Made by a program: the position numbers and the translations under genes. Positions 491-58,078 of a DNA stretch of 64,000 nucleotides are shown piece after piece. A model generated the notes under the pieces. It was not told the DNA's origin, did not search any database, and saw only the letters and a list, made by a program, of their open reading frames with translations. The stretch's first letter is position 1. Each line of letters starts with the position of its first letter. Source of the DNA: a virus; the IMG/VR virus record IMGVR_UViG_3300045988_150584, one strand, 5' to 3'.

Positions 491-494
491 TTCG

Positions 495-1540: not shown

Positions 1541-1546
1541 TTTTTA

Positions 1547-1623: not shown

Positions 1624-1685
1624 TTTACTTTTGAGAGAATCAGTAAAAGCAGCATCGCCACGAGCAGGCTTCTCTCCTGATGCCG

Positions 1686-2100: not shown

Positions 2101-2113
2101 ATATTTAATTTTG

Positions 2114-2190: not shown

Positions 2191-2305
2191 GATAAAGCCA
2201 TGCGTCCGTAGAACCTCGTCTGCAGCCGATAGGTTTTTAGCTGGAATAGCAGTCAAGTAATGAGCTGAACCGCACAAACGCCAACATAACCAACATGGCA
2301 CGATC

Positions 2306-2381
2306 TGGTGGAAACAATGAGAATCGAACTCACGACCTCCTGCTTGCAAGGCAGGCGCTCTCCCAGCTGAGCTATGTCCCC
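2306..2381 (-). tRNA. tRNA-Ala(UGC)
   Basis: GGGGACATAGCTCAGCTGGGAGAGC, anticodon arm CCTGC-CTTGCAA-GCAGG. The G3-U70 identity pair is present. CCA is encoded. Confidence 0.9.
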
Positions 2382-2387
2382 ATGTAA

Positions 2388-2412
2388 CCGTCCTCTTTCG
2401 AGGACGGATTTT
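2388..2412. other. GC hairpin between CDS 2426-3232 and the tRNA array
   Basis: ccgtcctc-tttc-gaggacgg. The T-run lies on the plus-strand side only, so its role as terminator of the minus-strand gene is doubtful; it may be a processing site or a barrier. Confidence 0.4.
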
Positions 2413-2425
2413 ATTTGATTTGAGA

Positions 2426-4474: not shown

Positions 4475-5709
4475 GCTAATTTATCGCTCCCTTGTGGGCG
4501 ATAACGAGTCGTATCAAAGTCAATATCGTAAAATGCTTTGACACCATTATAATCACAGACACAAACTAACTGCTGCTGCGCTCCGTAAATGCGCTTTCCA
4601 ACGCAGTAGTCATCCATACCAAGAAAGCTGCCGGCCATAATCGTTTTCACGCCTTGAACACTATCAGTCTTATTGTGATGTAAATGACCTGAAAGAATAG
4701 CGTACACCGGATCTTTTGCCATTGTCTGAAGCGATTGAACTTTCCCAGCAGATCCATCATAATCGCCATGCACACCAAGATAAGTCTTGCCGCGAATATC
4801 AAGCAGATACATCGTATCGTCGATCTTTCTATAATGATCAAACGATACATTCTCGAAAGCTTGTAAACGAGCTTTCAAATACCACTCAACTAAATCGTCA
4901 AGACGCTCATGGATTGAAGCAACATCTTTCTCTTCAAGCCGAGAATGATTTCCAGCAACAGAAGAAAAGTAAACATTCTTAAAGTGATGGCTTAATGTAG
5001 ACAAAAACTCCGCAAGAAGTTCAGATACTCCAACGACCTGTTGAATGACATTTTCTCTGTTCGACACGGCAATAGACTTATGGATATTTCCGCTAATCAA
5101 GTCTCCGTTTGCCCATACATAGCAATTCTCCGCTCCATGCAAAGCGGCAATTTCAAAGATGCGATCCAGATATTCATTAAGAAGCTGCACGCAAACATCA
5201 GAATTATAGTAATTCCAATAATTGTCTACACACGCTCCAAAATGCAAATCATTTAAGCTCACAAGCAAATCGTTTCCGCTTGGTTCAATTACACATGGCA
5301 CATAATCCAACCGTGGAATTACGCCAGAAGTAATTGCCCTCTCAAAAATATCAGAGTTTTCATCCTTGCGAGCCAAGTCGCGCACAACTTTATTAAGAGC
5401 GTTTCTCTGATCAAAAAACCGTTGGCGTTCTTTCTTAAATTCAAGCATCTTCTGCTCAATCTCATCAAGATATGCACTTCCGAGATCCTGCGTTGCCTTC
5501 TGCTTGAAGTATTTCATCACATGATAGCCAGAATACGGTGTTACATTCGCGGCTTTACGAAGACTATCGTAATGGACATCAAGCCCAAGCAGATCAACAA
5601 TATCTGACCATTCTAAGTCAGAAGGGTTCTGCTCAACCTTAATCTCAATCAGCCGTAGGCCATACTCATAATTGTCTTCATTTTCAAGCTGTTTATATTT
5701 TGGATTCAA
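4471..5709 (-). CDS. calcineurin-like metallophosphoesterase (SbcD/Mre11-like nuclease candidate)
   Basis: Motifs DLHFG, GDLISG, GNHS and GHLHH occur in the canonical order. Confidence 0.8.
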   Translation of the reverse strand: MNPKYKQLENEDNYEYGLRLIEIKVEQNPSDLEWSDIVDLLGLDVHYDSLRKAANVTPYSGYHVMKYFKQKATQDLGSAYLDEIEQKMLEFKKERQRFFDQRNALNKVVRDLARKDENSDIFERAITSGVIPRLDYVPCVIEPSGNDLLVSLNDLHFGACVDNYWNYYNSDVCVQLLNEYLDRIFEIAALHGAENCYVWANGDLISGNIHKSIAVSNRENVIQQVVGVSELLAEFLSTLSHHFKNVYFSSVAGNHSRLEEKDVASIHERLDDLVEWYLKARLQAFENVSFDHYRKIDDTMYLLDIRGKTYLGVHGDYDGSAGKVQSLQTMAKDPVYAILSGHLHHNKTDSVQGVKTIMAGSFLGMDDYCVGKRIYGAQQQLVCVCDYNGVKAFYDIDFDTTRYRPQGSDKLA

Positions 5710-5909
5710 TATTCATCCCTCCCATCATCGGGCGGCAACTGAATACTGCGGCGAATTGTCAGAGTAACGCCAACAACGCCGTCCCAGCGTTTTAACAGCT
5801 CTAAGAGGCTGTATGTTCTTACGGAATCAGTATCATATTCTGTGATTGTCATATCACTGGTGTCAATTATGGCATTTTCAAAGCTTTCGCTTTTAACCAC
5901 CATTGACAT
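5706..5909 (-). CDS. hypothetical protein
   Basis: Internal ATG (MSMVVKS..) is preceded by GAGGAAAG. It overlaps the stop of the upstream gene. Confidence 0.5.
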   Translation of the reverse strand: MSMVVKSESFENAIIDTSDMTITEYDTDSVRTYSLLELLKRWDGVVGVTLTIRRSIQLPPDDGRDEY

Positions 5910-6144
5910 TATGCTTTCCTCGCTGCTGAATGATTCGCTTGCGACGAATCTCACGCTCTCGATCAATCCGTGCAACAATTTCGGCGGCGAGATGGTTTGT
6001 ACTCGCAATCGCCCTCATGTTTCCTTCACTCTCTGTTGCGTAGTAATGATGCCGCTTTGAATCCTGCATCATTGTTCGCGTTACCTTGTACTCAGGATAC
6101 AATTCTCTGAGAATACGCGCTTCTTCCTTAGTTACTGGAATCAT
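5893..6144 (-). CDS. hypothetical protein
   Basis: 83-aa ORF, the first gene after the 6145-6436 control region. Confidence 0.5.
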   Translation of the reverse strand: MIPVTKEEARILRELYPEYKVTRTMMQDSKRHHYYATESEGNMRAIASTNHLAAEIVARIDREREIRRKRIIQQRGKHNVNGG

Positions 6145-41659: not shown

Positions 41660-41771
41660 GAGAGCGTCTGGATGACAGCTTTAAGGTGTATCGAACGGCG
41701 GACACCTACAGCAATGTTCTTTAAGAAAACTGGAATTTTTCTGCTTACGGGTTCGATTCCCGTAGCTCTCA
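41660..41771 (+). ncRNA. tRNA-like RNA P3 (good acceptor and T-arm, no canonical D or anticodon arms)
   Basis: Acceptor GAGAGCG/AGCTCTC and T-arm ACGGG-TTCGATT-CCCGT. The interior contains hairpin AGGTGT..ACACCT followed by ACAGCAATGTT, plus two CTTTAAG heptamers. Confidence 0.45.
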
Positions 41772-41841: not shown

Positions 41842-41952
41842 GCAGAGGTAGCTCAGTCGGTAGAGCATCAGACAAAAAATGTGCTAAGCATTAGCGCTAA
41901 CAGCAATGTTAAAGGAATCCGAGTGTCGGAGGTTCAAGTCCTCCCCTCTGCG
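41842..41952 (+). ncRNA. tRNA gene P4 with a ~38-nt insertion in the anticodon loop (body Phe/Lys-like)
   Basis: - Perfect acceptor GCAGAGG/CCTCTGC.
- Canonical D-arm TAGCTCAGTCGGTAGAGC and T-arm GGAGG-TTCAAGT-CCTCC.
- Anticodon stem TCAGA/TCCGA encloses CAAAAAATGTGCTAAGCATTAGCGCTAACAGCAATGTTAAAGGAA. Confidence 0.6.
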
Positions 41953-41959: not shown

Positions 41960-42031
41960 TCGTGCGTAACATCTGCGAAAGTACACCGTGGATGCGATTG
42001 GTATATGTCAGTTCGATTCTGACCGCACGAG
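41960..42031 (+). ncRNA. tRNA-like RNA P7 (normal length, non-canonical core)
   Basis: Acceptor TCGTGCG/CGCACGA and T-arm GTCAG-TTCGATT-CTGAC. I could not fold the 40-nt interior into D and anticodon arms. Confidence 0.4.
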
Positions 42032-42110
42032 CCTATGCGGTGTCTCACTGAAATAAATGTGGTGTGGGTGAGTAAAATCAGGGCTGTTGAAGAACTTGTA
42101 TCGTAGCGCT

Positions 42111-42180
42111 GCGGTGCATGGAACGTCTGGCAGAAGCAGTTTTACAATACAGAGCTGTTCGAGTCAGCTCCACCGCCCCA
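42111..42180 (+). ncRNA. tRNA-like RNA P8 (short, non-canonical core)
   Basis: Acceptor GCGGTGC/CCACCGC (6 of 7 paired), T-arm AGCTG-TTCGAGT-CAGCT, CCA encoded. No 5-7-5 anticodon arm was found. Confidence 0.4.
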
Positions 42181-42183
42181 AAT

Positions 42184-42298
42184 GCCAGGGTAGCTCAATC
42201 GGTAGAGCGCGTAATAACGCGACTTGTTAAGCCGCTTGCAGCAAATTTCTTTTGGTCTGTTAAACCCGTGGTTGCAGGTTCGATTCCTGCCCCTGGCT
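42184..42298 (+). ncRNA. tRNA gene P5 (Asn-like CTGTTAA loop) with a ~44-nt insertion between the D-arm and the anticodon region
   Basis: Acceptor GCCAGGG/CCCTGGC, D-arm TAGCTCAATCGGTAGAGC, T-arm GCAGG-TTCGATT-CCTGC. The insertion carries GCAGCAAAT, and only a 3-bp GGT/ACC stem flanks CTGTTAA. Confidence 0.5.
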
Positions 42299-42384: not shown

Positions 42385-42502
42385 ACGGCAGTGGTGAAGC
42401 GGTAACACAGCAGCCATACAAATGCGAAAAGTGGATTTTCGCTAACAGCTATTTCACAATCCAAGCTGCCAATCGTAGGTTCGATTCCTACCTGCCGTTC
42501 CA
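42385..42502 (+). ncRNA. tRNA gene P6 with a ~43-nt insertion in the anticodon loop
   Basis: Perfect acceptor ACGGCAG/CTGCCGT. Anticodon stem GCAGC/GCTGC encloses CATACAAATGCGAAAAGTGGATTTTCGCTAACAGCTATTTCACAATCCAA. T-arm GTAGG-TTCGATT-CCTAC. CCA is encoded. Confidence 0.6.
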
Positions 42503-42626: not shown

Positions 42627-42691
42627 GCCCCTCCTTTAAGACACAGACAGCATCGAATGTGAAATGGTGTCTTGAAGGCTATTTCAAACAA

Positions 42692-42712
42692 AAAGAAATT
42701 AGTTAAACAATT
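42692..42712 (+). promoter_or_regulatory. class-B motif copy directly 5' of an RBS
   Basis: AAAGAAATTAGTTAAACAATT followed by CAAGGAGG. Confidence 0.5.
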
Positions 42713-42728
42713 CAAGGAGGAAGAAAGT

Positions 42729-44273
42729 ATGAATGGTTTTATGTCTGCTATGAAAAGCACTTTGAACGATGAGTTCAATGTTTCTGTTACCGAAAACGGT
42801 GCTGTTGGCTATCGTACTACCGGCAAGGAACTATTGGATCTCAACTTTGCCGTTGCATCTCTTCGTAAGGCATCTCCGAGCGATATTGCAAACCGCTTCG
42901 TCAGAGCGTTTTTCGAGGATAAGATTACGGCAATGAAATGGCTGTTCTTTGCGCGTGATGTTCGTGGTGGTCTTGGCGAGCGTCGTTTGTTCCGCATCGT
43001 GTTTCAGCGTATGGCGGAGGAAAATCCGGAATACATCATTCCGCTGATTTCCCTTGTGCCTGAGTATGGACGCTATGACGATTTGTGGTGTTTGCTCGAT
43101 ACAAAGCTTGCACCTAATGTGCTGAACATCATTGCGCAGCAGCTCCGCGATGACATTCAGAATTTGAGCGATGGCAATAGTATTTCTCTTCTCGCAAAGT
43201 GGCTTCCGTCTGCGAATGCTCATTCCGCTGACGCAAAGCGTTATGCTAAGCAGATCTACAAGTTTATGGGCATTTCTGAGCGCGACTACCGTAAGGTGCT
43301 GTCCAAGCTGCGTTCTAAGCTGGATATCGTGGAGAAGAAAATGTCCGAAAAGCGTTGGGATGAGATTGCGTATGAAGCTGTCCCGTCTCGTGCAAATCTG
43401 ATTTACAACTCCGCATTCCTTCGTAACGACGAAGATCGCCGCCGCGATTTCCTGTCCCGTTTGGAAAAGGGCGAAACGAAAATCAATGCGTCTACGCTTT
43501 TCCCGCATGACATTGTTGCAAAGTATAGCGATGGCTGGCGTGGCCTGAAGCCTACGGATAAAACACTGGAAGCTCTTTGGAACGCACTTCCCGATACCGT
43601 AAACGGATGCGGCAATACCATCGTCGTTGCGGATGGCAGCGGCAGTATGACCGTGAATGTCGGTGGCAGCAATGTTACCGCACTGGCTGTTGCAAATGCA
43701 CTTGCGATTTATTTCGCAGAGCGTTCCTCTGGTCAGTTCAAGGACAATTACATTACATTTTCTGAGCATCCTCAGCTCGTCGATTTGAGTAAGGGCAAGA
43801 ATCTCCGCGAGAAGATTCAGATTGCGCTTAAACACAGCGAGGTAGCAAACACAAATATCGAAGCGGTGTTTGACCTTATCTTGACTACGGCAAAGAAAAA
43901 CAACATGGGACAGAGCGATCTTCCTGCAAATATCCTTATTATCTCCGATATGGAGTTTGACTACTGCGCAACATCGAATGGTGGAAGCAGATATAATCGT
44001 GGTCGCGTTGATTCTCGTCTGTTTGACAAGATTGCAAAGCGCTATGAGGATGCTGGGTATAAACTGCCAAGGCTCGTGTTCTGGAACGTGAATAGCCGCA
44101 CGAATACCATCCCTATTAAGGAAAACGAGATGGGAGTTGCGCTTGTAAGCGGTTTTAGTCCGAACATCGCAAAGATGGTGATGAGTGGTCAAACTGATCC
44201 GTATGAGTGTCTGCTTGAAACGCTGAACTCTGATCGCTATAAGCCTATCGGTGACGCTCTGGAAAATCAGTAA
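42729..44273 (+). CDS. DUF2828-family protein with a vWA/MIDAS-like domain
   Basis: N-terminus VTENGAVGYRTTGKELLDLNF.., GRYDDLW, and VVADGSGSM (DxSxS MIDAS-like). 514 aa. Family recalled from memory of plant and phage DUF2828 proteins. Confidence 0.65.
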   Translation: MNGFMSAMKSTLNDEFNVSVTENGAVGYRTTGKELLDLNFAVASLRKASPSDIANRFVRAFFEDKITAMKWLFFARDVRGGLGERRLFRIVFQRMAEENPEYIIPLISLVPEYGRYDDLWCLLDTKLAPNVLNIIAQQLRDDIQNLSDGNSISLLAKWLPSANAHSADAKRYAKQIYKFMGISERDYRKVLSKLRSKLDIVEKKMSEKRWDEIAYEAVPSRANLIYNSAFLRNDEDRRRDFLSRLEKGETKINASTLFPHDIVAKYSDGWRGLKPTDKTLEALWNALPDTVNGCGNTIVVADGSGSMTVNVGGSNVTALAVANALAIYFAERSSGQFKDNYITFSEHPQLVDLSKGKNLREKIQIALKHSEVANTNIEAVFDLILTTAKKNNMGQSDLPANILIISDMEFDYCATSNGGSRYNRGRVDSRLFDKIAKRYEDAGYKLPRLVFWNVNSRTNTIPIKENEMGVALVSGFSPNIAKMVMSGQTDPYECLLETLNSDRYKPIGDALENQ

Positions 44274-44656: not shown

Positions 44657-44967
44657 TGCCAGATGTTGTTATGACGAATCATAGTGTGAAGCGAACAAAA
44701 GAAAGAATTGGACTAAGCAAGAAAATCGCAGATAAGAACGCGCAGAGAGCGCTTGAATACGGTGTTACGCACTCTGAGGCAAAAGGTGGCTTATGTCGGT
44801 ATCTTGATAAACTGTATCTGTCGAATGGTAATGCAAATAATGTTCGCGTTTATCACAGATATGTATATCTCTTTCGTGGGAACACGCTTTTGACAATCAT
44901 TCCATTACCAAACAAATTCTATGCTCTGGCGGACAAACTTCAAAAGCAGAAAGGCGAAATAGAATGA
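44656..44967 (+). CDS. hypothetical protein
   Basis: 103 aa, with a start/stop overlap. Confidence 0.5.
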   Translation: MPDVVMTNHSVKRTKERIGLSKKIADKNAQRALEYGVTHSEAKGGLCRYLDKLYLSNGNANNVRVYHRYVYLFRGNTLLTIIPLPNKFYALADKLQKQKGEIE

Positions 44968-45920
44968 GAATTGTAAAAACACATACTGGAAAAATTTATG
45001 TTGATAAGGATAAGAAACTGGAATTTTTAACGGTTGGCGACTATGGCAAGGAAAACAATATTAAAGCAAGTTTTCTTGGTTTGAACAAAGAAATCAACGG
45101 TGTTCAACATCATACGGTTGACCTGGCGGATAAGTGGGTTGCTACTATCAGCACTCAGAAAGGTTGTCCGATGAATTGCCAGTTTTGTGATTGCCCGAAG
45201 TATGGATTTCACGGAAATGTATCTCGTGAGGAACTGGCTTATGAAATTGAGACAATTCTTGCAAACGAACGAGTAACACATACTAATCGTTTCAATGTTC
45301 ACTTTGCTCGCATGGGTGAGCCTACATTCAACGATGCCGTTCTTCCGTTTGCTGAATTTGATTTGAAGCCGCTGGTTAAGCGGTTTATTACGGCAGATAC
45401 AATTCATCCTGTTGTTTCAACTATGCTTCCGAAAGCAAATGCCAATTTGAAGTCATTCATCATGGAATGGTGTCGCATTAAGAACAGTGTGTACAGTGGA
45501 GAAGCTGGTCTGCAATTTAGCATCAATTCGACGAATCAGGCGCAGCGTAATGAACAGTTTAACGGAAAGAGCTTATCCTTATCAGAAATTTCAAGTCTCG
45601 CATCTAAGCTTCCTACGCCGGTCGGTAGAAAATACACATTGAATTTTGCGGTAACGGCTGACACGATTTTGGATGCGGTGGAGCTTGGGAAGCTGTTCGA
45701 TAAGGAAAAGTTTATCGTAAAAATTACGCCGATTCACCAGACAAATGCAGCCATTAAGAATGGATTTGATGTGACCACGGAATATACTGACTACGATGTT
45801 TACCGCAAGTTTGAAGATCCACTTGTTGCTGCTGGATGGGATGTCATTGTGTTCGTACCGAGCGAGGAAGAAGATAGCGACCGTATTACTTGCGGGAATG
45901 CCTTAATTTCAGATAAGTGA
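44964..45920 (+). CDS. RlmN/Cfr-like radical SAM RNA methyltransferase
   Basis: STQKGCPMNCQFCDCP (CxxxCxxC), FARMGEPTFN (MGMGEP-like), and C-terminal DRITCGNAL (second catalytic Cys, CGQL-like). Confidence 0.65.
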   Translation: MRIVKTHTGKIYVDKDKKLEFLTVGDYGKENNIKASFLGLNKEINGVQHHTVDLADKWVATISTQKGCPMNCQFCDCPKYGFHGNVSREELAYEIETILANERVTHTNRFNVHFARMGEPTFNDAVLPFAEFDLKPLVKRFITADTIHPVVSTMLPKANANLKSFIMEWCRIKNSVYSGEAGLQFSINSTNQAQRNEQFNGKSLSLSEISSLASKLPTPVGRKYTLNFAVTADTILDAVELGKLFDKEKFIVKITPIHQTNAAIKNGFDVTTEYTDYDVYRKFEDPLVAAGWDVIVFVPSEEEDSDRITCGNALISDK

Positions 45921-47494: not shown

Positions 47495-48574
47495 GTGATT
47501 AAGAAGGTTGATCGGAAAAATCGGTTTGTAGCAATGTTTAATCCTACAACTGGCTTCTATGCTCGTAGTGGTGTGATTGATGAGAATGGGCATGACACCG
47601 GCGTAGATCCGTTTATGACAGCATTCCCAGAGCTGATTGATGTCGGTGTGATGGGTCATTGTGTCCACGGAGCAAGCGGTCTTTGCTTTAAGTCTGGCGT
47701 TCAGTGTTATCAGAACGGACTAAAGACAAAAGAACCAAATATGACGCTTGAAAATTTCAAACGCATTGTTGATGAATGTAGGGGTAAAACATTCCAGCTC
47801 GCGCTTGGTGGTCGTGGTGATGTTGACCAGCACGAAAATTTTGCTGAGATTTTGCAGTATTGCAGGGAAAACAATATCGTGCCGAATTTCACTTCTTCAG
47901 GGCTTGGCTTTACAGATGAGATTGTAGATCTGTGTAAAAGATACTGTGGTGCAGTAGCAATCTCCTGGTATCGCCAGAAGCATACATACCGTGCGATTCA
48001 GATGCTTTTGGATGCTGGCGTAAAAACGAACATTCATTATGTTCTTGGAAACAATTCCATTGAAGAAGCAATTATGCGGCTAAAAAATAATGGTTTTCCT
48101 GCTGGCATTAACGCAGTGATTTTCCTTCTTCACAAACCCGTTGGACTCGGCAGCGAAGAGAATGTTTTGCAGATGGATAACCCGCTCGTAAGACAGTTCT
48201 TTGAGATTGTGGATATGCAGAAATTCAATTTCAAAATTGGCTTCGATTCATGTTCTATTCCAGCCGTTTTGAATCTGACTCACAATATCGACCACGATAG
48301 TATTGATACTTGCGAGGGCGGCAGATGGAGCATGTATATCACAAGCGACATGAAAGCTTTGCCCTGTAGTTTCGATAATCAAGAGCTGCGTTGGGCATTT
48401 GATATTAGCAATTCCAGTATCGAAGAAGCTTGGAATAGTCCGCAGTTTGAAAGATTTAGAAGTCATTTCAGAAATTCTTGCCCGAATTGTCAGTGCCAAC
48501 ACGCTTGTATGGGCGGTTGTCCGATTCGTCCGCAAGTAGTTTTGTGCGATAGGGCGGAAAAGGAGCTGTATTAA
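47495..48574 (+). CDS. radical SAM/SPASM-like protein with an atypical N-terminal Cys pattern
   Basis: C-terminal CPNCQCQHACMGGCP is SPASM-like. The N-terminal GHCVHGASGLCFKSGVQCY is not the canonical CxxxCxxC. GTG start after AAGGAGGG. Confidence 0.5.
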   Translation: MIKKVDRKNRFVAMFNPTTGFYARSGVIDENGHDTGVDPFMTAFPELIDVGVMGHCVHGASGLCFKSGVQCYQNGLKTKEPNMTLENFKRIVDECRGKTFQLALGGRGDVDQHENFAEILQYCRENNIVPNFTSSGLGFTDEIVDLCKRYCGAVAISWYRQKHTYRAIQMLLDAGVKTNIHYVLGNNSIEEAIMRLKNNGFPAGINAVIFLLHKPVGLGSEENVLQMDNPLVRQFFEIVDMQKFNFKIGFDSCSIPAVLNLTHNIDHDSIDTCEGGRWSMYITSDMKALPCSFDNQELRWAFDISNSSIEEAWNSPQFERFRSHFRNSCPNCQCQHACMGGCPIRPQVVLCDRAEKELY

Positions 48575-50282: not shown

Positions 50283-50301
50283 TTTGTTTTGGAGGGGCAA
50301 A

Positions 50302-50913
50302 ATGATTATTGAAGACAAGCGATATGAGATTGATGAAGTTTTTCATATGATCGGAGAAGAGTATTTATCTCTTGACACGGATAAAGGGAAGAAAAACTCG
50401 GATATCGTAGTGGACGGGTTTCGCGTTCATCCGATTTCGCTCCGTTATATGACTTTCTATCAGAAAGGTACTGCATGTGCATATTGCGGAAAAGTCGGAA
50501 CGCATTTTAAGCTTTGTGGCGATCCAGATTCGCATCGTAGACATTTCAACTTGTTTGCAGATGACGGCTCTCTGATTACGAAGGATCATATTGTTCCTAA
50601 AAGCAAAAGCGGAAAAGATTGCGTTTCTAACATGCAGCCGATGTGCAAAGCGTGTAATACAGAGAAAGGTAACTATCATCCTGAAATTAAAGTTGATTAC
50701 ATCGCAGCATTAAATCAGAGAACGGGTAACACTTCCCTTTTTAGAACAATTAACAAAGCGGCATATCATGTTATTTCGGCGCATTTGCGTCCACCCAAGA
50801 AAGACAAGGATCTTATCATTAACACCTCGATCAATGCGGTACTTGCAATTCAGAATGCCATCAAAACTGGCTGTTCGTATTGCGGATACACATGGTCGAT
50901 TGAGCAGCGATAA
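50302..50913 (+). CDS. HNH endonuclease
   Basis: CAYCG.., ITKDHIVPKSKSGKDCVSNMQPMCKACNTEKGN. Confidence 0.85.
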   Translation: MIIEDKRYEIDEVFHMIGEEYLSLDTDKGKKNSDIVVDGFRVHPISLRYMTFYQKGTACAYCGKVGTHFKLCGDPDSHRRHFNLFADDGSLITKDHIVPKSKSGKDCVSNMQPMCKACNTEKGNYHPEIKVDYIAALNQRTGNTSLFRTINKAAYHVISAHLRPPKKDKDLIINTSINAVLAIQNAIKTGCSYCGYTWSIEQR

Positions 50914-50932
50914 GGAGCTTGTTAAATAATAT
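50911..50932 (+). promoter_or_regulatory. class-B motif copy overlapping a stop codon, 5' of an RBS
   Basis: TAAGGAGCTTGTTAAATAATAT followed by CAAGGAG. Confidence 0.45.
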
Positions 50933-50946
50933 CAAGGAGTGAAAAT

Positions 50947-51462
50947 ATGAAAGTTAGACGCGATTTTGTAACGAACAGTAGCTCCAGCAGTTTTATTATC
51001 GCTTTTGCGGATAAGGCTGATGGTCTACAACAGATTGACGATCTCAGACACAGATACGGCTCTGATTATGTCGATCAGCTCTTGAAGGATTTCTCAAACA
51101 GCGAACCGATCTCTCATGACAAAATCAGAGAGCGCTTTGAGGATGAGTTTGAGTGTGAGGCAAGCTACGTTCTCAGTTATGGCGATGATGGTTGGTGGTC
51201 TGATGATAAACCGACCTTTAGAAAAAAGTGGGAGGAAGCTCATCCTGGCGCAACTGGTGCTGACTTCTATAATTCTCCGGAGCGGAAAGCCGCTATCAAA
51301 GAGTATGTAGAAAATGCTTTCAAGAAGTTGTTTAACGACATTGGTTCTGCTCCATATCTGGTTGAGCTTGAATATGAAGACCATACGGATATTGGCAGTG
51401 CGTTAGAACACGATATTCTTCCAAACTGTGATTTTACGGTACGTGGTTTTAGTCATCATTAA
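50947..51462 (+). CDS. paralog 1 of the DFVTNSSSSS[FY]-motif family
   Basis: MKVRRDFVTNSSSSSFIIAF.. 171 aa. Confidence 0.6.
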   Translation: MKVRRDFVTNSSSSSFIIAFADKADGLQQIDDLRHRYGSDYVDQLLKDFSNSEPISHDKIRERFEDEFECEASYVLSYGDDGWWSDDKPTFRKKWEEAHPGATGADFYNSPERKAAIKEYVENAFKKLFNDIGSAPYLVELEYEDHTDIGSALEHDILPNCDFTVRGFSHH

Positions 51463-51476
51463 AAGGAGGACACGAT

Positions 51477-52037
51477 TTGAAATTTCGCAAAGATTTTGTG
51501 ACCAATTCCAGTAGCTCCAGCTATACATGTGATATTTGTGGCGCAACGGAATCTGGCTGGGATATTAGTTTAGAAGAGGCCGGCATGGTTGAATGCGTAA
51601 ATGGGCATACGATCTGCAATGATGAGCTGCTTGAGATTCCGCGCAAAGAGCTGATTAAAAAGATTCTGGAATCTGGTTACGAGACTGAAAGTGAAGAAGA
51701 GCTGAATAGTCAGCACGACGATGATTCACTTCTCGATATCTTCTGGGATCAGGCAGACAATCGTTATGCTGCTCCGGAAGAGTTTTGTCCGATTTGCCAG
51801 TTTATCGAGTATTCGCAGCACGATCTTGGAAAGTATCTTGAAAAAGAGTACAAGGTTTCCCGCAGTGATGTGTTCGCAAAGGTGAAAGCGGTGAATAAGC
51901 GCCGCAAGAAGCTATACGACAGCGAATATGTGACAGAGGTATGTAAGCAGTTCGATCTTAATCCTGTCGATATTGTAGCTGGTCTGAAGAAGAGATTCGT
52001 TACCTACCGTGCATTCAGCGACTATATTCGGAGGTAA
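51477..52037 (+). CDS. paralog 2 of the DFVTNSSSSS[FY]-motif family (with a Zn-ribbon insertion)
   Basis: TTG start after AGGAGG. KFRKDFVTNSSSSSYTCDICG..CPICQ. Confidence 0.6.
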   Translation: MKFRKDFVTNSSSSSYTCDICGATESGWDISLEEAGMVECVNGHTICNDELLEIPRKELIKKILESGYETESEEELNSQHDDDSLLDIFWDQADNRYAAPEEFCPICQFIEYSQHDLGKYLEKEYKVSRSDVFAKVKAVNKRRKKLYDSEYVTEVCKQFDLNPVDIVAGLKKRFVTYRAFSDYIRR

Positions 52038-52042
52038 TTGAA

Positions 52043-52477
52043 ATGAAAATTAGAGAAGATTTTGTAACGAATAGTAGTAGCTCAAGCTATGTTATCGCCT
52101 ATAAAGCGTCTCCAAACTTCGATGAAGAGACTATTCAGCGCTATCCGATTCTGAAAGGGTTTACCACTGTTTTAGAAAGCGTTTTGCTTGCCGCAAATGA
52201 TTATGGTGACACGACAGAGGGCGAGCAGATTAAAACCATTGAGGAACTGGATAAGTATTTTGTTGGATGCTATGGATATGGGGAGATCAATACGCTTCCA
52301 CGCATCTTGGATGATGACCATTATCTAAAAGAACATTATGATAAGTGTTCTAAGCTGTTAAACGATGGTTATAACATCGTTTTCAAGCAGGTCGATTATA
52401 ACGATAGCACTTTTGATTCTATCATTCGCAACCTGGCAAACACAGATGGCATTGTCCAGATTATTGCTGATGAATAA
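52043..52477 (+). CDS. paralog 3 of the DFVTNSSSSS[FY]-motif family
   Basis: MKIREDFVTNSSSSSYVIAY.. 144 aa. Confidence 0.6.
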   Translation: MKIREDFVTNSSSSSYVIAYKASPNFDEETIQRYPILKGFTTVLESVLLAANDYGDTTEGEQIKTIEELDKYFVGCYGYGEINTLPRILDDDHYLKEHYDKCSKLLNDGYNIVFKQVDYNDSTFDSIIRNLANTDGIVQIIADE

Positions 52478-52490
52478 TTGGAGGTAAACC

Positions 52491-53930
52491 ATGTACGCAG
52501 CATATGTAACTCGTATTAAGAATTTGCGCAAACATTCAAACGCGGATCGACTTCTCTGCGGTGAATGTTTTGGCAATACGGTAATTGTGGGCTTGGATAC
52601 AAAGCCAGAAGAGCTGGGTGTCTATTTCCCCGTAGATGGCAAGCTTGGCACTGAGTATGCGGTGAAGAACGACCTGCTTCGCCGTAAGGATGAGAACGGT
52701 AAGCCTGCTGGTGGTTATCTCGATCCTGAAAAGCGTAATATTAAGGCGTTGAAGCTTCGTGGCGAAAAGAGCGATGGCTTGTTTATGCCATTGTCCAGTT
52801 TGAGTGGGTTCACAGATATTGCAAAGCTCCGTGATGGCGATGTAATTACCATTTTGAATGGTGTTACAATTTGTGAGAAGTATATCCCCCATCGTAAGAA
52901 GAGTACCATTATGGTTGGGGGGGGTAGGACTCGTAAGCATCACGATCCTGTTGCTCCGCTCTTTGCGGAACATGCTGACACGGAACAGCTCGCATATAAC
53001 CTCAGCGCATTTCACCCAGGCGATCTTGTTGAGATTACTTTGAAAATGCACGGCACATCTCAGCGAACCGGATATCTACCAATGCTTAAAGGATATAAGA
53101 AGACATTGCTTGATAAGCTCCTACATCGCATTGGTTCTCCGATTTATAATTGGGGATATGTAACTGGTACTCGTCGTGTTGTCTTGGATGATTTTGACGG
53201 TGGCTTTTATGGTAGCAATGCTTTCCGTGAACAGCATAGCAAGGTTTTTGAAGGTAAGCTGCATAAGGGCGAAACCGTGTACTATGAAGTCGTTGGCTTT
53301 ACGCAAGACAAGCAGCCTATTATGGCATCTTGCGACAATAAAAAAGTCGGTGATAAGGAATTTGTTAAACAATACGGCGAAAAGACAGTGTTTAGCTATG
53401 GTTGCTATCCAGACGGTGTAAAGGAAGTAACAAATCCGAAAATTACACACGCAACAGTAATGATTGGCGATACCTCTTTTACAGCAAATGAGATTACGGA
53501 ATATGAATCTGCTCCGCAGTCTGATTTCTATGTGTATCGAATGACAATGACAAATGAGGATGGCGATGTTGTTGAATACACACCAGACTTTATGCGTTAT
53601 CGTTGTGAACAGATGGGCGTTAAGTGTGTTCCGCTATTTGCTCGATTCATTATTCCGGATTACATTCAGCTTCCTGATGCTGTTGGGTCTCCGATGGCTG
53701 TCAATGCTGGCGAATATGTCAAGGAAATTGCTGAAAACTTCTATGATGGTGCAGACCCGATTGGTAAGTCGCATGTCCGCGAGGGCGTTGTTTGCCGTAT
53801 CGTAAACCGCCCAAAGTTTACAGCATATAAGCACAAGAATTTTGCATTCAAGGTGCTTGAGGGAATTGTAAAGGATGTTGCGTCTGCTCCGGACATGGAA
53901 GAAGCGCAAGATGATGTAAGCGTTGCATAA
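52491..53930 (+). CDS. ATP-dependent RNA ligase (Rnl2/Rnl5-like, N-terminal OB module)
   Basis: N-terminus YVTRIKNLRKHSNADRLLCGECFGNTVIVG (DRB0094-type OB). Nucleotidyl-lysine motif EITLKMHGTS (KxHGT). An in-frame G8 tract at 52917-52924 encodes GGG. Confidence 0.8.
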   Translation: MYAAYVTRIKNLRKHSNADRLLCGECFGNTVIVGLDTKPEELGVYFPVDGKLGTEYAVKNDLLRRKDENGKPAGGYLDPEKRNIKALKLRGEKSDGLFMPLSSLSGFTDIAKLRDGDVITILNGVTICEKYIPHRKKSTIMVGGGRTRKHHDPVAPLFAEHADTEQLAYNLSAFHPGDLVEITLKMHGTSQRTGYLPMLKGYKKTLLDKLLHRIGSPIYNWGYVTGTRRVVLDDFDGGFYGSNAFREQHSKVFEGKLHKGETVYYEVVGFTQDKQPIMASCDNKKVGDKEFVKQYGEKTVFSYGCYPDGVKEVTNPKITHATVMIGDTSFTANEITEYESAPQSDFYVYRMTMTNEDGDVVEYTPDFMRYRCEQMGVKCVPLFARFIIPDYIQLPDAVGSPMAVNAGEYVKEIAENFYDGADPIGKSHVREGVVCRIVNRPKFTAYKHKNFAFKVLEGIVKDVASAPDMEEAQDDVSVA

Positions 53931-54050
53931 CGACATTACGCATCTTATCCATCAATGTCGAACGGTGTGCTGGAATATATACGGATTTGGTAGCTCCAGC
54001 ACACTGCCGACATATTGTCAGAGATTGTATTTTGAAAGAGAGGTGCTGTG

Positions 54051-54872
54051 ATGAGTGACAGAGAAAAGATTATGAAGCGGCTTTCTGAACACCTCGAAGC
54101 AGTAAGAGACAAACACCCTGAGTGGGTTGGTATTTTTCTTCAAGGTTCACAAAACTACAACTTAGATTATGAGGGCAGCGATATTGATTCCAAGCTGATC
54201 GTCCTCCCTTCGTTTGAAGATTTTGTTTTGAACAAGAGACCGTATAGCTACACACACATCATGGAAAACGATGAACATGTAGATGTTAAGGATATTCGTC
54301 TGATGCTCGATTGCTTCAAAAAGCAGAATGTAAATTTTGTTGAGATTCTTTTTACCCCGTACCGTATCTTGAATCCAAAGTACGAAGCTTTGTTTCAGCC
54401 GATTCTTGATATTGCAGAGAGAGTCGGTCGATATAACAACTATGCTGCATTGAACTGCATGGTCGGAATGGCGCTTGAAAAGCAAAAGGCATTGTGCCAC
54501 CCATATCCTGCAACAAAAGACAAGATTGATAAGTACGGTTTCGACAGCAAACAGTATCATCATATCGAGCGTCTTTATGAGTTCATGCAGCGTTGGCTTA
54601 ATGGCGAGCCATATCGTGATTGCCTCATTTCTAAGCAGAGAGAACGTCTTAGAGAAATCAAGCTTTATATTAACTGCGATCTTACAACGGCGCAGGCCAA
54701 TTCGGACAGAATTGTATCTGAGATGAAGTCAATCAAGGACACTTATATGCAGCAGAATCCTGTCGTGATAGATCGTGAGGTTGATTCAGTTTTCAATAAG
54801 GTTTTGCTTGATTTATTTAAGTTTAATTTCCAGTGTGAGATTGGTAACGGCTCGCCTAATAAAAAGGAGTAA
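54051..54872 (+). CDS. Pol-beta-superfamily nucleotidyltransferase
   Basis: GIFLQGSQNYNLDYEGSDIDSKLIV (GS..x..DxD). Confidence 0.6.
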   Translation: MSDREKIMKRLSEHLEAVRDKHPEWVGIFLQGSQNYNLDYEGSDIDSKLIVLPSFEDFVLNKRPYSYTHIMENDEHVDVKDIRLMLDCFKKQNVNFVEILFTPYRILNPKYEALFQPILDIAERVGRYNNYAALNCMVGMALEKQKALCHPYPATKDKIDKYGFDSKQYHHIERLYEFMQRWLNGEPYRDCLISKQRERLREIKLYINCDLTTAQANSDRIVSEMKSIKDTYMQQNPVVIDREVDSVFNKVLLDLFKFNFQCEIGNGSPNKKE

Positions 54873-54876
54873 GAAT

Positions 54877-55791
54877 ATGTCTATCTTTTTTATGATGGTA
54901 GGTCTTCCGTACAGCGGAAAATCTGTTTATGCGGAGGGGCTGCGAGAGAAGTTCGGTGCAGAGATTCATTCCAGCGATGCAATTCGAGCAGAGATCCTTG
55001 GAGATGTACAGGATCAGACAAACAATCAGATTGTTTTTGATACTCTGCACAAGCGAGTAATTTCTGATTTGTCTGCTGGTAAAAATGTAATTTACGATGC
55101 GACGAATATCAATTACAAGCGGCGTATTGATATGCTGAATCGCTTGTCGAAGGTGAAGTGTCAGAAAGTCTGTATCGTTATGGCGACACCTTTTCACGAA
55201 TGTGAAGAGCGTAGCAAGCATCGTGAGCGGGTTGTCCCACACGAGGTTCTTGTGCGTATGTATAAGAATTTCTGGCTTCCGTATTGGTATGAGGGGTGGG
55301 ACGCAATCGAGCTTGTTTATCCAGATAATTTTGAGCCGTACAGTGTAAGTGATTTATTTAATCGTGATGGAGGGCTGAATAGCTTTGAGCAGGACAATCC
55401 ACATCATACTTTCACGGTTGGGCATCATTGTATCGCTACATATGGGCTTGTTTCTGATGGAAGCACAGAGCTTCAGGAGGCTGCTCTTCTTCATGATATC
55501 GGAAAGCCTTTCACAAAAAGCTTTGTGAATAGCAAGGGCGAAACAACAGAGATTGCTCATTATTATGAACATCAGCATGTTTCCGCCTATGATAGCTTAT
55601 TCTACTCAAATCCGAGTTTGAATCGGCTGTATATCGCAAATATCATCCAGTGGCATATGCGTCCGTTTGAGCTTGAACGAGACCCCCATTCTGGCAAAGC
55701 GCAGAAGCGGTTCAAAAAGCTTGTCGGCAATAAGCTTTATTCAGATGTGATGAAGCTTCATGCCGCTGATATCGAAGCAAAAGGAACTTGA
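54877..55791 (+). CDS. polynucleotide kinase (P-loop) fused to an HD phosphohydrolase
   Basis: MMVGLPYSGKS (Walker A), YDATNINYKRR, and C-terminal HH..LLHDIGKP (HD). Confidence 0.75.
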   Translation: MSIFFMMVGLPYSGKSVYAEGLREKFGAEIHSSDAIRAEILGDVQDQTNNQIVFDTLHKRVISDLSAGKNVIYDATNINYKRRIDMLNRLSKVKCQKVCIVMATPFHECEERSKHRERVVPHEVLVRMYKNFWLPYWYEGWDAIELVYPDNFEPYSVSDLFNRDGGLNSFEQDNPHHTFTVGHHCIATYGLVSDGSTELQEAALLHDIGKPFTKSFVNSKGETTEIAHYYEHQHVSAYDSLFYSNPSLNRLYIANIIQWHMRPFELERDPHSGKAQKRFKKLVGNKLYSDVMKLHAADIEAKGT

Positions 55792-56752
55792 TAAACAATA
55801 CAAAGTGGGTGTTTGGCATTTACAGTAAAGAAGACTTAGATGTAATGCAGTCATGGGATTTGCAGCGAAAAATTCAAGTGACTACAACTCGTATCATTGA
55901 GTGGTATGAGCATTTCGGCGGAAGCGTTTATGTTGCTTTTTCTGGTGGTAAAGATAGTACGGTTTTGCTTGATATCGTTCGCCGTATTTACCCAGATGTG
56001 CCGGCTGTATTTTGTGACACTGGCTTGGAATTTCCGGAAATCCGAGAGTTTGTTAAGCAGCATGATAATGTTGTGATTCTGCGACCTGAGATGAATTTCA
56101 GAAAGGTCATCGAAACATACGGATATCCAGTTGTCTCAAAAAGAGTTGCCGACACTGTAGAATATGGCAGTAAGCCAGGTTCTTATCGGTGGAAAGAGCT
56201 TCACGGAGAGATTATCCGTAGCAATGGTACTCCGTCGGAGTTTAACTGCGAAAAGTGGCGCTATCTTCTGGACGCCCCATTTAAGGTTTCTTCTCGTTGC
56301 TGCAATATTATGAAGAAGAAGCCGCTGAAGAAGTATTTCAAAGAAACTGGTCGCGTTCCCATTATTGCAACTATGGCAGACGAGAGCCGATCTCGTCGAT
56401 CTACATGGATGAGACAGGGTTGTAATGCTTTTAGTAAGAAATCTCCAAGTTCTCAGCCGATGTCTTTCTGGACAGAAAATGATGTTCTTGAGTATTTGCA
56501 CACCTACAATATTCCCTACGCCTCCGTTTACGGTGAGATCATACCTTGTGGGGGGGGTGGACAACGACAGGTGAAAGAAGAACTGGTTGTGTCTTTTGCG
56601 CATTTGGCGCTCATCTGGAGAAGTCCCCGAACCGTTTCCAGCGATTAAAGGAAACGCATCCTAAGCTATGGGAATATTGTATGAAGCCTTGGAGTGAACA
56701 TGGCTTAGGTATGCGAACAGTATTAGAGTACATTGGTATTCCGTGTGAATAG
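55788..56752 (+). pseudogene. PP-loop 'PAPS reductase'-family gene #1, reading frame broken at a G8 tract
   Basis: VAFSGGKDSTVLLD (PP-loop). After G8 at 56550-56557 the conserved C-terminus (..TGERRTGCVFCAFG..) continues in another frame. G9 or G6 would restore it. Confidence 0.75.
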
Positions 56753-56768: not shown

Positions 56769-58078
56769 ATGCAACCAATTTTCAAAGAATACGCTCATTT
56801 CTTACATGATAATGGGTGTGATATATCTTGGTTTCAAGAAAGAACATATTGGTTGGATCACAACATTGTAAAAGCGTTCACGAGGGGGGGGGCAGCGGTT
56901 AGTTTCGCTATATAAGATTGTTGTTTCTGACGATCTTACCGTTGCTCTTACAAAACACAAACAAAATGTTGATGGTCTGCAATTTGAATCTTGGGACGAA
57001 ACTATCGCGCGTTTCAGACCGCATCTTGAAAGTATTGAGCATGATAGCATCGCTCTTCTTCGACAGTATGGAATTGGGACAGAGCGGAAAATAGTCAATA
57101 CAAATTCTACTGGCAAAGACAGTATGGTTGTTACACATCTTGCAAAAAAAGCAGGATTAAATTTTGAAACATATTTCAATGTTACAACCTTGGATGTTGC
57201 TGAAAGTAATTGTATGGCAAAACGGAATGGATTCAAACACATTCTGCCCAATCCGGAGTATGGTGGATTTTATAAGTACATCCAACGCTATGATGGGGGG
57301 GGGCAACCAAATGATACCAAGTAGATTGAATCGCTTCTGCTGCAATTATTTTAAGGAAAGTCCGACAATTGGCTATTTTCCTGATGATGAGCCTCTGATT
57401 TTCTTATTTGGAATGCGGAATCAAGAATCAGTTCGCCGGTCTGGTTATAAGGACATATGGAAAAACGAAAAGTGGGGCGAACGCGACTGGATCGCTCTTC
57501 TTCCAATTCGTCAATGGTCTGAGTTTGATGTCTGGCTTTATATTTTGTCGGAAGATATTGAGATCAACGACAAGTATAGATACGGATATGATCGCGTTGG
57601 ATGTGGTATTGCTTGTCCGAATTATACAAAGTATACATGGGTTCTTGATAAATACTGGTATCCATATTTGTTTAATCGGTGGAGAAATATCTTACGGAAC
57701 GACTTTATCAACAATAACAAGTGGCTCATTATGAATTGCACCGTCGATGAGTATGTGACAAAAGCATGGACTGGCGGTGTATATCGTGACGAGCCGACAG
57801 AAGATGTTATTTCTGAATTTTCTCAGTATTCTGGGCTGGATATATCAATTGCAAGAAAGTATTTTAATCGCTATTGCGCAAATGGATGTATTAACAAGCG
57901 CCGTCAGCCTCTTCGGATCAAAGATAGAAATGCTCTTGCCATGAATATGAAAATGTTTGGAAGAAATATAAATCATTTTTTGTGCAAGAAATGCCTTATG
58001 AAAGAATTTGGTTGGAACAAATCTCAATGGGACGAAAAAGTCAGCGAATTCAAAGCGCAAGGCTGTCAATTATTTTGA
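56769..58078 (+). pseudogene. PP-loop 'PAPS reductase'-family gene #2, frame broken at two G9 tracts
   Basis: NSTGKDSMVV (PP-loop variant), ..RLNRFCCNYFKESP.., ..GCGIACPNY.. G9 tracts lie at 56884-56892 and 57295-57303. G8 at each would give one continuous ORF. Confidence 0.7.

Follow-up and report, generated by a model that had tools for sequence, protein, structure and literature searches.

Phage systems have been described in which an ATP-dependent 5′-phosphate RNA ligase is co-encoded with a kinase, a 3′-phosphoesterase and RlaP, the 'RNA ligase-associating Pol-beta' nucleotidyltransferase (PMC12776372, PMC7824862; Burroughs and Aravind 2016, as reported in PMC12776372). For these systems, the addition of 1–2 nucleotides (nt) ahead of ligation was predicted and has since been shown in vitro: RlaP, whose target among cellular macromolecules is RNA, adds 1–2 nucleoside monophosphates to an RNA 3′-OH, and repaired tRNA that was missing nucleotides regained aminoacylation only with RlaP treatment (PMC12776372). 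A survey of large phages sees in the same logic of ligase, kinase, phosphoesterase and RlaP a way of countering host nucleases that cut tRNA (PMC7824862). A second relevant enzyme is HD-Pnk, an established 2′,3′-phosphoesterase and 5′-kinase encoded beside a ligase. In Runella slithyformis and Deinococcus it combines, according to the account of Munir and Shuman (2017) given in PMC6097658, an HD 2′,3′-phosphoesterase with a P-loop 5′-OH kinase and adjoins an ATP-dependent ligase gene, which the Runella HD-Pnk gene overlaps (PMC6097658). Here we describe a locus that shares features with both, in a 64,000-nt stretch of the IMG/VR virus record IMGVR_UViG_3300045988_150584 (the window, to which all coordinates refer). 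We propose, at a probability of roughly 65%, that positions 52491–55791 hold a conserved three-gene phage operon that would repair broken RNA by healing, refilling and sealing it; the predicted products are an RNA ligase, a RlaP-like nucleotidyltransferase and a fusion of a polynucleotide kinase with an HD phosphoesterase (Pnk-HD).

A first-pass annotation of the window had read these genes, together with three paralogous genes and an HNH endonuclease gene upstream of them, as an RNA end-healing and sealing unit. The three enzymes stood as such a unit, whereas the attachment of the paralogs and the HNH gene to it did not. Every gene that the annotation listed lies on the + strand, with coordinates equal or very close to those it gave. 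The novelty that it implied has to be withdrawn: the enzyme set is already described (PMC12776372, PMC7824862, PMC6097658), and pairs of these genes are annotated in Tsamsa-like Bacillus phages.

The three cassette enzymes

The first gene of the cassette (52491–53930, +; 479 amino acids (aa), with the sequence LKMHGTS) had been called an Rnl2/Rnl5-like RNA ligase with a KMHGT motif and an N-terminal OB domain, a call borne out by a match to the 'RNA ligase' family phrog_968 (E = 9e-64), by invariant catalytic motifs and by OB homology. We aligned the protein with 17 homologues, down to 31% identity, from phages of Bacillus, Lysinibacillus, Vibrio, Alishewanella and Mycobacterium and from metagenomes. 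Invariant in all 17 were K185 within KMHGT (motif I; codon 53043–53045) and R192, G226 and R228, E266 (motif III), Y349 and R350 (motif IIIa), E431-G432 (motif IV), and K447 and K449 (motif V), and the set of motifs I, Ia, III, IIIa, IV and V is complete in the window protein. The profile of this alignment matched only RNA ligases in the Protein Data Bank (PDB), namely T4 Rnl2 around motif IIIa (E = 6.8e-7) and, over residues 8–121, the N-domain of the Naegleria Rnl5 enzyme NgrRnl (E = 4e-5); neither a DNA ligase nor a capping enzyme was returned by this sequence-profile search of solved structures.

The ligase begins with an OB-like domain (about aa 5–130), which is followed by the nucleotidyltransferase domain; past motif V (K449) the chain runs on for just some 30 residues, which form an acidic tail, and lacks a C-terminal domain. 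Residues 5–101 match PF21189 ('PHA02142 OB') at E = 2e-3, below the Pfam cut-off, and precomputed PF21189 matches exist on some of the ligase homologues listed at 65–71% identity. The N-terminal half matches TIGR02306 (DRB0094 ligase, Deinococcus Rnl5) over positions 8–176 with E = 3.9e-8 and 32.6 bits against a cut-off of 151 bits, and PF09414 (RNA_ligase) is matched at E = 6.9e-5 and 23.5 bits, below its 27-bit cut-off. Because it consists of an OB domain and a nucleotidyltransferase domain with nothing C-terminal, we file the protein as Rnl5-like in its predicted architecture; because its PF09414 and TIGR02306 scores lie below the curated thresholds, we do not file it as an equivalog of DRB0094. 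Two lineage-specific insertions, at about aa 306–345 (53406–53525) and about aa 385–405 (about 53643–53705), sit between motifs III and IIIa and between motifs IIIa and IV. Their lengths vary among close relatives, and they are absent from the homologues in one relative (L005) and in Bacillus phages.

The second gene (54048–54872, +; 274 aa) was annotated at first pass as a Pol-beta nucleotidyltransferase, in agreement with a match of its product to phrog_388 'nucleotidyltransferase' (E = 6.5e-11) and with the Pol-beta catalytic signature G33-S34, D45, D47 and E99, which is invariant in seven homologues including a canonical PF10127 member. Against PF10127 (RlaP) itself, the window protein reaches E = 0.025 and 14.7 bits, where the gathering score is 23. 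Its orthologue in the Lysinibacillus phage LC76P1 (39% identical) passes the same threshold (28.3 bits versus 23), and PF10127 is matched by four of the seven aligned homologues, with a best E of 7.8e-20. No solved structure was significantly similar in PDB searches with the single sequence or with a profile, which gave weak matches to minimal nucleotidyltransferases. From these profile and motif data, we assign the product to a divergent RlaP-type Pol-beta nucleotidyltransferase, predicted to add 1–2 nt to an RNA 3′-OH.

The third gene (54877–55791, +; 304 aa) encodes Pnk-HD, in which an N-terminal P-loop 5′-OH polynucleotide kinase (about aa 1–150; 54877–55326) is followed by a C-terminal HD phosphoesterase (about aa 170–304; 55385–55788). 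Matches of the kinase to AAA_33 (E = 2.8e-18) and of the C-terminal part to HD PF01966 (E = 4.3e-6, 27.4 bits, above the cut-off of 22), along with invariant catalytic residues, uphold the earlier reading of a P-loop kinase fused to an HD phosphatase. Both phrog_6931 and phrog_505, which the protein also matches, are named 'polynucleotide kinase'. Among solved structures, the closest to it is that of the Clostridium thermocellum Pnkp kinase domain (E = 1.3e-11), with GxxxxGKS, SSD and DATN aligned; the bacterial Pnkp model TIGR04075 is matched at E = 5.5e-14, and the HD region weakly resembles the HD domain of CCA enzymes. Across the homologues, G9, G14-K15-S16, D34, R37, D74 and R116 of the kinase and H177, H206-D207, H232, H260 and D298 of the HD domain are invariant.

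The three genes occupy 52491–55791 on the + strand with tight spacing. The mechanically called open reading frame (ORF) of Pnk-HD opens at a GTG at 54775, within the nucleotidyltransferase gene, but the true start is almost certainly the ATG at 54877 (MSIFFMMVGLPYSGKS), because it follows an AAGGAG Shine–Dalgarno sequence, lies 4 nt past the nucleotidyltransferase stop codon and is where the homologues begin. With this start, the successive gaps from the last upstream paralog to the ligase, from the ligase to the RlaP-like gene and from there to Pnk-HD are 13, 117 and 4 nt, and each gene from the first paralog through Pnk-HD has a good ribosome-binding site ahead of it. A consensus terminator scan found no convincing terminator within the cassette and placed none in the ligase–RlaP spacer; its sole + strand match in the three genes, a weak stem at 54905–54919, falls at the start of the Pnk-HD coding sequence, and terminator-like matches were not commoner than in shuffled sequence. 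Co-expression of the three genes is plausible, because they share a strand, are separated by 117 and 4 nt, carry Shine–Dalgarno sites and show no convincing terminator. The 117-nt spacer contains a stem-loop (53955–54013, +) that has no trailing T-run and a predicted folding energy of −38.3 kcal/mol (z = −2.6 versus shuffles), which could be a processing or regulatory element. In the relative L005, a 119-aa ORF fills this spacer.

Conservation of the cassette and its neighbours

To follow the cassette through other phages, we anchored on the ligase and took the best 80 of 250 viral contigs (ligase identity 58–100%), 69 of which have at least 5 kb on each side of the ligase; a neighbour was counted if it lay on the same strand within 6 kb of the ligase. 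A RlaP homologue adjoins the ligase in 66 of these 69 loci, a Pnk-HD homologue lies near it in 53, and 52 have both. The commonest order is ligase, RlaP, Pnk-HD, with partner identities down to 35–50%, and the linkage spans several ligase-identity bands. Cultured phages show it as well: genes 28–30 of LC76P1 are ligase, nucleotidyltransferase and Pnk-HD in that order, all annotated as hypothetical, and in the Tsamsa-like Bacillus phages vB_BcoS-136, PBC2, Kirov and Thrax1 Pnk-HD comes directly after the ligase, the annotations being 'polynucleotide kinase' and 'RNA ligase'. Identity of the window proteins to these LC76P1 and Bacillus phage homologues is 43–50% for the ligase, 33–36% for Pnk-HD and 39% for the nucleotidyltransferase. 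The clustering of the cassette exceeds chance and recurs in independent lineages. At the sequence level, the catalytic signatures are intact in all three predicted proteins, and the genes are linked in many phage lineages. No near-identical cultured phage was found at the DNA level; the IMG/VR contig IMGVR_UViG_3300045988_167762 encodes a ligase 100% identical to that of the window.

A more distant phage contig (L007) carries, at 160–2571 (+), a canonical RlaP (PF10127) with a Pnk-HD homologue directly after it and a YqeY-domain gene before it. There is no ligase within the 16.5 kb covered, and radical-SAM/SPASM and FVTNSSSSS genes of the kinds described below lie 2.5–5.5 kb downstream.

Upstream of the cassette in the window lies a gene for a Ro60-like protein (42672–44273, +; 533 aa; putative TROVE and vWA; DUF2828/DUF7788). 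The protein matches PF11443, PF25043, VWA_2 and phrog_850 'RNA-binding protein' (E = 5e-141). It has no sequence-level match in the PDB, and the ten best PDB matches to its AlphaFold model (predicted local distance difference test score (pLDDT) 62) are all Ro60/TROVE structures, among them a Thermus phage Ro60 and Deinococcus Rsr, with E from 7e-8 to 7e-5 and low TM-scores (about 0.3). The protein has homologues in 711 cultured phage records, where some carry the annotation 'RNA-binding protein'. The distance from the Ro60-like gene to the ligase downstream of it is about 1.3 kb in 22 diverged ligase-anchored loci; in the clade of the window, an insertion of about 8 kb, with an RlmN/Cfr-like gene and the SPASM/paralog module in it, separates the two. 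A 647-aa gene product of LC76P1 was considered as a Ro60-like candidate and dropped, as it shows no similarity.

Ahead of the Ro60-like gene are three tRNA-like genes, at 41842–41952, 42184–42298 and 42385–42499 (all +; Rfam tRNA matches), the last of which ends 173 nt before it. Each scores 48–52 bits against the Rfam tRNA model; the acceptor, D and T arms are canonical, and the anticodon loop contains an insert of 44–55 nt. The default mode of ARAGORN misses them; run in intron mode, it takes the third for a tRNA-Trp(CCA) interrupted by a 45-nt insert between positions 32 and 33, and its readings of the other two are unconvincing. Nine diverged relatives that we examined have two to three such genes (113–124 nt) ahead of the Ro60-like gene, and 22 aligned RNAs (including those of L202, L195, L213, L230, L210, L226 and L216) fall into three orthologous types. 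In all types the insert module consists of AAUG, a 7-bp hairpin and YNACAGC, of which CAGC is invariant. Compensatory changes at five of the seven base pairs of the hairpin mark the insert as a selected structure. The type 3 orthologues retain CCA, and U33 is not conserved in that type.

Two identities for these RNAs were tried and set aside. Intron-containing tRNAs were plausible for one gene, as Trp(CCA), and implausible for the other two, and canonical anticodon loops could not be rebuilt by eye across the orthologues. A YrlA identity was dropped as well, the Rfam YrlA score being 20.4 bits against a threshold of 69 and the topology different. Bacterial Y RNAs are tRNA mimics encoded at most 4 kb from the Ro60 gene on the same strand (PMC4201824), and the tRNA-like RNAs may either partner the Ro60-like protein in the manner of Y RNAs or be tRNA precursors that undergo splicing. 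The order tRNA-like genes, Ro60-like gene, cassette is a conserved RNA-centred neighbourhood in related phages, and we infer that the Ro60-like and tRNA-like genes are functionally linked to the cassette. The neighbourhood offers a tractable entry to the roles of Ro60-type proteins and tRNA mimics in phage infection. Between the tRNA-like genes, at 41674–41771, 41960–42032 and 42127–42233 (+), are extra T-arm-like hairpins as well as sub-threshold matches to tRNA (25 bits) and YrlA (20 bits), which may be degenerate or permuted tRNA-like elements; about 145 nt of this spacer is missing in the close relative L132.

Immediately upstream of the ligase are the three paralogs, at 50947–51462 (171 aa), 51477–52037 (186 aa) and 52043–52477 (144 aa), all + (50947–52477). 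All start with MK[VFI]R.DFVTNSSSSS[FY]; nothing beyond these 16 N-terminal residues is shared, identity over the rest being 28%. The motif is unchanged in homologues of paralog 1 as distant as 31% identity, and a confident structural model of paralog 1 (pLDDT 89) leaves motif residues 1–10 disordered. This fold had no match in the PDB or BFVD at E of 0.001 or less; none of the three proteins had a significant match in Pfam or NCBIfam, PHROGs yielded only the unnamed phrog_7397 for paralog 1, and a literature search for the FVTNSSSSS motif gave nothing relevant. We considered cRec, a cyclic-phosphate Rec domain, because it is reported beside RNA ligases, and rejected it: the shared part is only a disordered 16-residue tail, and the family tracks a radical-SAM/SPASM gene, not ligases. 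The LC76P1 gene just upstream of the ligase was likewise rejected as a paralog, since it is without the motif. No FVTNSSSSS genes were found in the flanks around the ligase or nucleotidyltransferase-like gene of LC76P1, vB_BcoS-136, PBC2 and four other cultured phages.

The window copy of the radical-SAM/SPASM gene (47495–48574, +) encodes a divergent 359-aa protein with a SPASM match (PF13186, E = 1.3e-7) and weak matches to maturases (TIGR04317, 1.8e-10; TIGR04085, 7e-7; mycofactocin maturase, 8.5e-7); its counterpart in the contig mentioned above, IMGVR_UViG_3300045988_167762, is 99% identical. Cys56 and Cys71 are present in 19 of 19 diverse homologues and Cys64 in 14 of 19, at a non-canonical spacing, and the seven SPASM cysteines are conserved in 18–19 of the 19. 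A LemA gene, a membrane-protein gene, a small ORF and the HNH gene separate it from the paralog array. In other loci (L133–L180, L261–L380), the SPASM gene is almost always adjoined by one to seven genes that share the N terminus MK.R.[DGS]FVTNSSSSS[FY], with products of roughly 60–480 aa that differ beyond it.

A pattern scan of viral contigs found at least 120 motif stretches, mostly tandem arrays of 2–6 genes, with post-motif regions that fall into at least 36 unrelated sequence clusters (21–458 aa in this viral set); as the scan required the motif, invariance of positions 1–15 in that set is circular. The repeat analysis therefore took the SPASM gene and the ligase as anchors and used the relaxed motif F[VI]TN[ST]5. 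Of 48 viral loci anchored on the SPASM gene, 45 have relaxed-motif genes downstream of it on its strand; in the remaining three, the sequence past the SPASM gene extends for no more than about 3 kb, and in two of these for less than 0.5 kb. Anchored on the ligase, motif genes occur in only 24 of the 69 full-flank loci, all of one clade with at least 73% ligase identity. Cellular genomes, taken one per species, also yielded at least 120 motif stretches, mostly in Clostridia and also in Coriobacteriales, Deltaproteobacteria, Bacteroidales, a Kaiserbacteria genome and Methanoculleus. Among the matches listed, 95 of 120 cellular motif loci have a same-strand SPASM homologue (29–77% identity), with a motif gene directly upstream of it in 32 and directly downstream in 45 (median gap about 20–25 nt), and the same 120 contain no ligase, no RlaP and one Pnk-HD.

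The paralogs lie outside the cassette and are members of a widespread SPASM-partnered family, because they travel with the SPASM gene in phages and in cellular genomes that have no ligase; their grouping with the cassette at first pass is contradicted by the 24 of 69 ligase loci as against the 45 of 48 SPASM loci. The pairing looks like an uncharacterised maturase–substrate system, and the invariant N-terminal peptide might, purely as a hypothesis, be the recognition or modification site of the SPASM enzyme. It is very widespread, extending over phages, many bacterial phyla, a candidate phyla radiation bacterium and at least one archaeon, and a literature search found no relevant papers on phage radical-SAM/SPASM systems. 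The HNH gene (50284–50913, +; 209 aa; PF01844, E = 7e-9, with PF14279 also matched) does not belong to the cassette either: it is present only where the ligase is at least 95% identical to that of the window and absent from all more distant relatives, and is probably a mobile, homing-type insertion. The HNH gene and the three paralogs are unrelated passengers upstream of the operon.

The window has several further features. It holds 16 tRNAs and a transfer-messenger RNA (tmRNA), which, with the three insert-bearing tRNA-like genes (inserts of 44–55 nt), agree with what the first reading had reported. The RlmN-like enzyme that it also mentioned is probably the weakly RlmN/Cfr-like product of 44964–45920 (+), a second radical-SAM protein that matches phrog_24834 and, partially and far below the cut-off, TIGR00048 (E = 4e-9). 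The tRNA/tmRNA array, at the left end of the window, encloses a full-length ROOL RNA (3288–3895, −; Rfam RF03087, 400 bits). Downstream of the cassette are two PAPS-reductase-like (PP-loop) genes, 55788–56648 and 57164–58078 (+), the first of which overlaps the Pnk-HD stop codon by 4 nt. They match complementary parts of the Pfam domain, with 515 nt and no called gene between them, and are followed by DNA methyltransferase genes; a PAPS-reductase homologue lies downstream of the cassette in 37 of the 80 ligase-anchored loci. In diverged relatives, a gene for a class-V aminotransferase (cysteine-desulfurase-like; in L210 at 4799–5965, +; PF00266, E = 2e-68) is the sole gene between the Ro60-like gene and the ligase. 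This aminotransferase, perhaps with the downstream PP-loop genes, hints at a sulfur-transfer step.

Proposed function and alternatives

Judging from characterised relatives, the HD domain of Pnk-HD would open and remove the 2′,3′-cyclic or 3′-phosphate left by metal-independent ribonucleases, and the P-loop kinase would phosphorylate the 5′-OH. The RlaP-like transferase would restore one or two nucleotides where the nuclease had also trimmed the 3′ end, and the Rnl5-like ligase, adenylylated on K185, would join the 3′-OH to the 5′-phosphate. The likely substrates would be host or phage-encoded tRNAs whose anticodon loop has been cut by host defence ribonucleases, in which case the operon would act as a counter-defence device. 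The 16 tRNAs and the tmRNA of the window fit a phage invested in translation.

Several points weigh against this proposal. The ligase and the RlaP-like protein, taken alone, score below the curated Pfam and NCBIfam cut-offs, and their families rest on profiles, motifs and orthologues; PDB searches with the single sequence and a profile matched no solved RlaP structure. The 69 ligase-anchored loci are biased towards relatives and one large metagenome, and the counts of 66, 53 and 52 are not independent events. Characterised Rnl5 enzymes (NgrRnl and DraRnl) seal duplex nicks with an RNA 3′-OH strand, and sealing of an anticodon loop is therefore not a given. In addition, the Runella ligase encoded beside HD-Pnk did not join standard substrates (PMC6097658).

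One alternative is that the cassette, in partnership with the Ro60-like protein and with the tRNA-like RNAs that carry inserts, acts on the phage's own RNAs and not on nuclease-damaged host tRNAs. One version would be an RNA quality-control or repair particle comparable to the Salmonella rsr-yrlBA-rtcBA operon; the other, a joining step after protein-catalysed excision of the 44–55-nt inserts, that is, enzymatic tRNA splicing. The suggestion at first pass that the cassette may do more than repair gains some weight from the tRNA-like and Ro60-like genes conserved upstream in diverged relatives: in 22 of these loci, the Ro60-like gene sits on the ligase strand only about 1.3 kb away, two to three tRNA-like genes precede it in the nine examined, and the insert is a conserved, covarying module. 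Bacterial Y RNAs are themselves tRNA-like and encoded within 4 kb of, and on the same strand as, the Ro60 gene (PMC4201824), and the Salmonella operon joins Ro60, Y RNAs and an RNA ligase (PMC7790460). However, the RNAs end in an acceptor stem, unlike YrlA, whose model they match at 20 bits against 69; the Ro60-like structure model is of low confidence; DUF2828 proteins are encoded in 711 cultured phage records, and in Tsamsa-like phages their genes are far removed from the ligase gene; and in the window 8 kb of other genes intervene. We consider action on the phage's own RNAs unlikely, if worth keeping in mind. For splicing, the third tRNA-like gene, stripped of its 45-nt insert, can be read as tRNA-Trp(CCA), and the orthologues have CCA at the same place, but no splicing endonuclease was identified, types 1 and 2 yield no canonical anticodon loop and U33 is not conserved in type 3. 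That inserts are cut from precursor tRNAs such as tRNA-Trp(CCA) and the halves rejoined by Pnk-HD, RlaP and the ligase is a long shot. If true, it would place tRNA splicing by healing and sealing, a pathway otherwise known from fungi and plants, in a bacteriophage.

Another possibility is that the enzymes work mainly on DNA or RNA–DNA junctions during phage replication, healing 5′-OH and 3′-phosphate DNA ends and sealing nicks with a ribonucleotide 3′-OH. Characterised Rnl5 ligases accept, opposite the RNA 3′-OH strand of a duplex nick, either a DNA or an RNA 5′-phosphate strand, and the genes downstream of the cassette are of DNA-modification type (PAPS-reductase-like and DNA methyltransferase genes). 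The Runella HD-Pnk is named a DNA/RNA end-healing enzyme in the title cited in PMC6097658. RlaP, on the other hand, acts on RNA (PMC12776372), and what is conserved upstream of the cassette is RNA genes and a gene for an RNA-binding protein. The ligase relatives with solved structures are all RNA ligases, and in related Bacillus phages an ATP-dependent DNA ligase is encoded separately, a few genes off. A main role on DNA seems very unlikely to us. The remaining alternative, that 50284–55791 forms one seven-gene system in which the paralogs serve the three enzymes as accessory or specificity subunits and the HNH gene belongs too, is scarcely credible. All of its genes are on one strand, the gap between paralog 3 and the ligase is only 13 nt, and the adjacency is kept, with 3–6 paralogs, down to about 73% ligase identity. 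Yet in 45 of the 69 loci anchored on the ligase, no paralog accompanies the cassette, and the paralog family adjoins the SPASM gene in 45 of 48 SPASM-anchored viral loci; a SPASM gene is present in 95 of the 120 cellular loci among the matches listed, and a ligase or RlaP in none of them. With the HNH gene confined to near-identical relatives, these distributions have already largely refuted the seven-gene reading. Repair of broken RNA, probably of cut tRNA, is the function that we favour for the three-gene operon.

Comparison with described systems

The first-pass annotation had drawn a parallel with T4 Pnkp/Rnl1 through different domain families, and the parallel is apt in that form: the window has a Rnl5-like ligase, an HD and not a HAD phosphatase, and an added Pol-beta nucleotidyltransferase. 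Homology to the T4 pair is limited to the P-loop kinase fold (T4 Pnk, E = 0.09). The phosphatase has no HAD match, the ligase matches only models of Rnl2/Rnl5 type and is not Rnl1, and the nucleotide-adding enzyme lies inside the window cassette, whereas the T4 RlaP homologue NrdC.11 is not described as part of the Pnkp/Rnl1 pair (PMC12776372). The resemblance to T4 is functional only. Bacterial Pnkp/Hen1 is likewise related through the kinase domain alone (TIGR04075 positions 12–134 of 851), and Pfam and NCBIfam searches showed no Hen1-like or metallophosphoesterase match among the cassette proteins.

With the Salmonella rsr-yrlBA-rtcBA operon the wider neighbourhood would share a Ro60-type gene, here a Ro60-like one, same-strand tRNA-like RNA genes close by and RNA ligation enzymes (PMC4201824, PMC7790460). 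The window differs in using an ATP-dependent 5′-phosphate ligase with Pnk-HD and RlaP in place of RtcB/RtcA, in a Ro-like protein of the DUF2828 family and in RNAs whose layout is not that of YrlA, since both ends lie in an acceptor stem and the anticodon loop holds the extra module. Compared with the Tsamsa-like Bacillus phages, in which the RlaP-like gene is about 20 kb from the ligase and the DUF2828 gene is also distant, the window keeps the RlaP-like gene within the cassette; relative to LC76P1 and the Bacillus phages, its ligase has two extra insertions.

Like HD-Pnk of Runella and Deinococcus, Pnk-HD unites a kinase with an HD phosphoesterase near an ATP-dependent ligase gene, but the domain order is reversed, with the kinase N-terminal and the HD domain C-terminal. 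In phrog_6931, the window kinase aligns at the C-terminal end (positions 187–339 of 343). The setting also differs, being a phage with RlaP present and without Tpt1 or an MTase-HIT pair. The ligase resembles Rnl5 (Deinococcus DraRnl and Naegleria NgrRnl) in having an N-terminal OB domain, a nucleotidyltransferase domain and nothing C-terminal past motif V. It departs from Rnl5 in its length (479 aa versus about 340), in its large insertions, in matches that all fall below curated cut-offs and in a nucleotidyltransferase domain that aligns best to T4 Rnl2 around motif IIIa.

The closest counterparts are the phage systems of RNA ligase, RlaP and kinase/phosphoesterase with which we began. Three differences stand out: the window RlaP is divergent and on its own sub-threshold for PF10127; the phosphoesterase belongs to the HD type and is joined to the C-terminal side of the kinase, where the jumbo-phage account stresses HAD or 2H enzymes; and the RlaPs studied biochemically come from RtcB operons, not from operons with a 5′-phosphate ligase. 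The RlaP biochemistry paper regards the configuration of a 5′-phosphate ligase with RlaP as chemically self-consistent, because RlaP leaves the 3′-OH that such a ligase needs (PMC12776372), and the cassette proteins would therefore be good material for reconstituting the repair of RNAs trimmed in the manner of RloC. Set beside these systems, the cassette is a well-conserved natural case of a 5′-phosphate RNA ligase, RlaP and a kinase/HD healing enzyme encoded together, with little that is new in kind.

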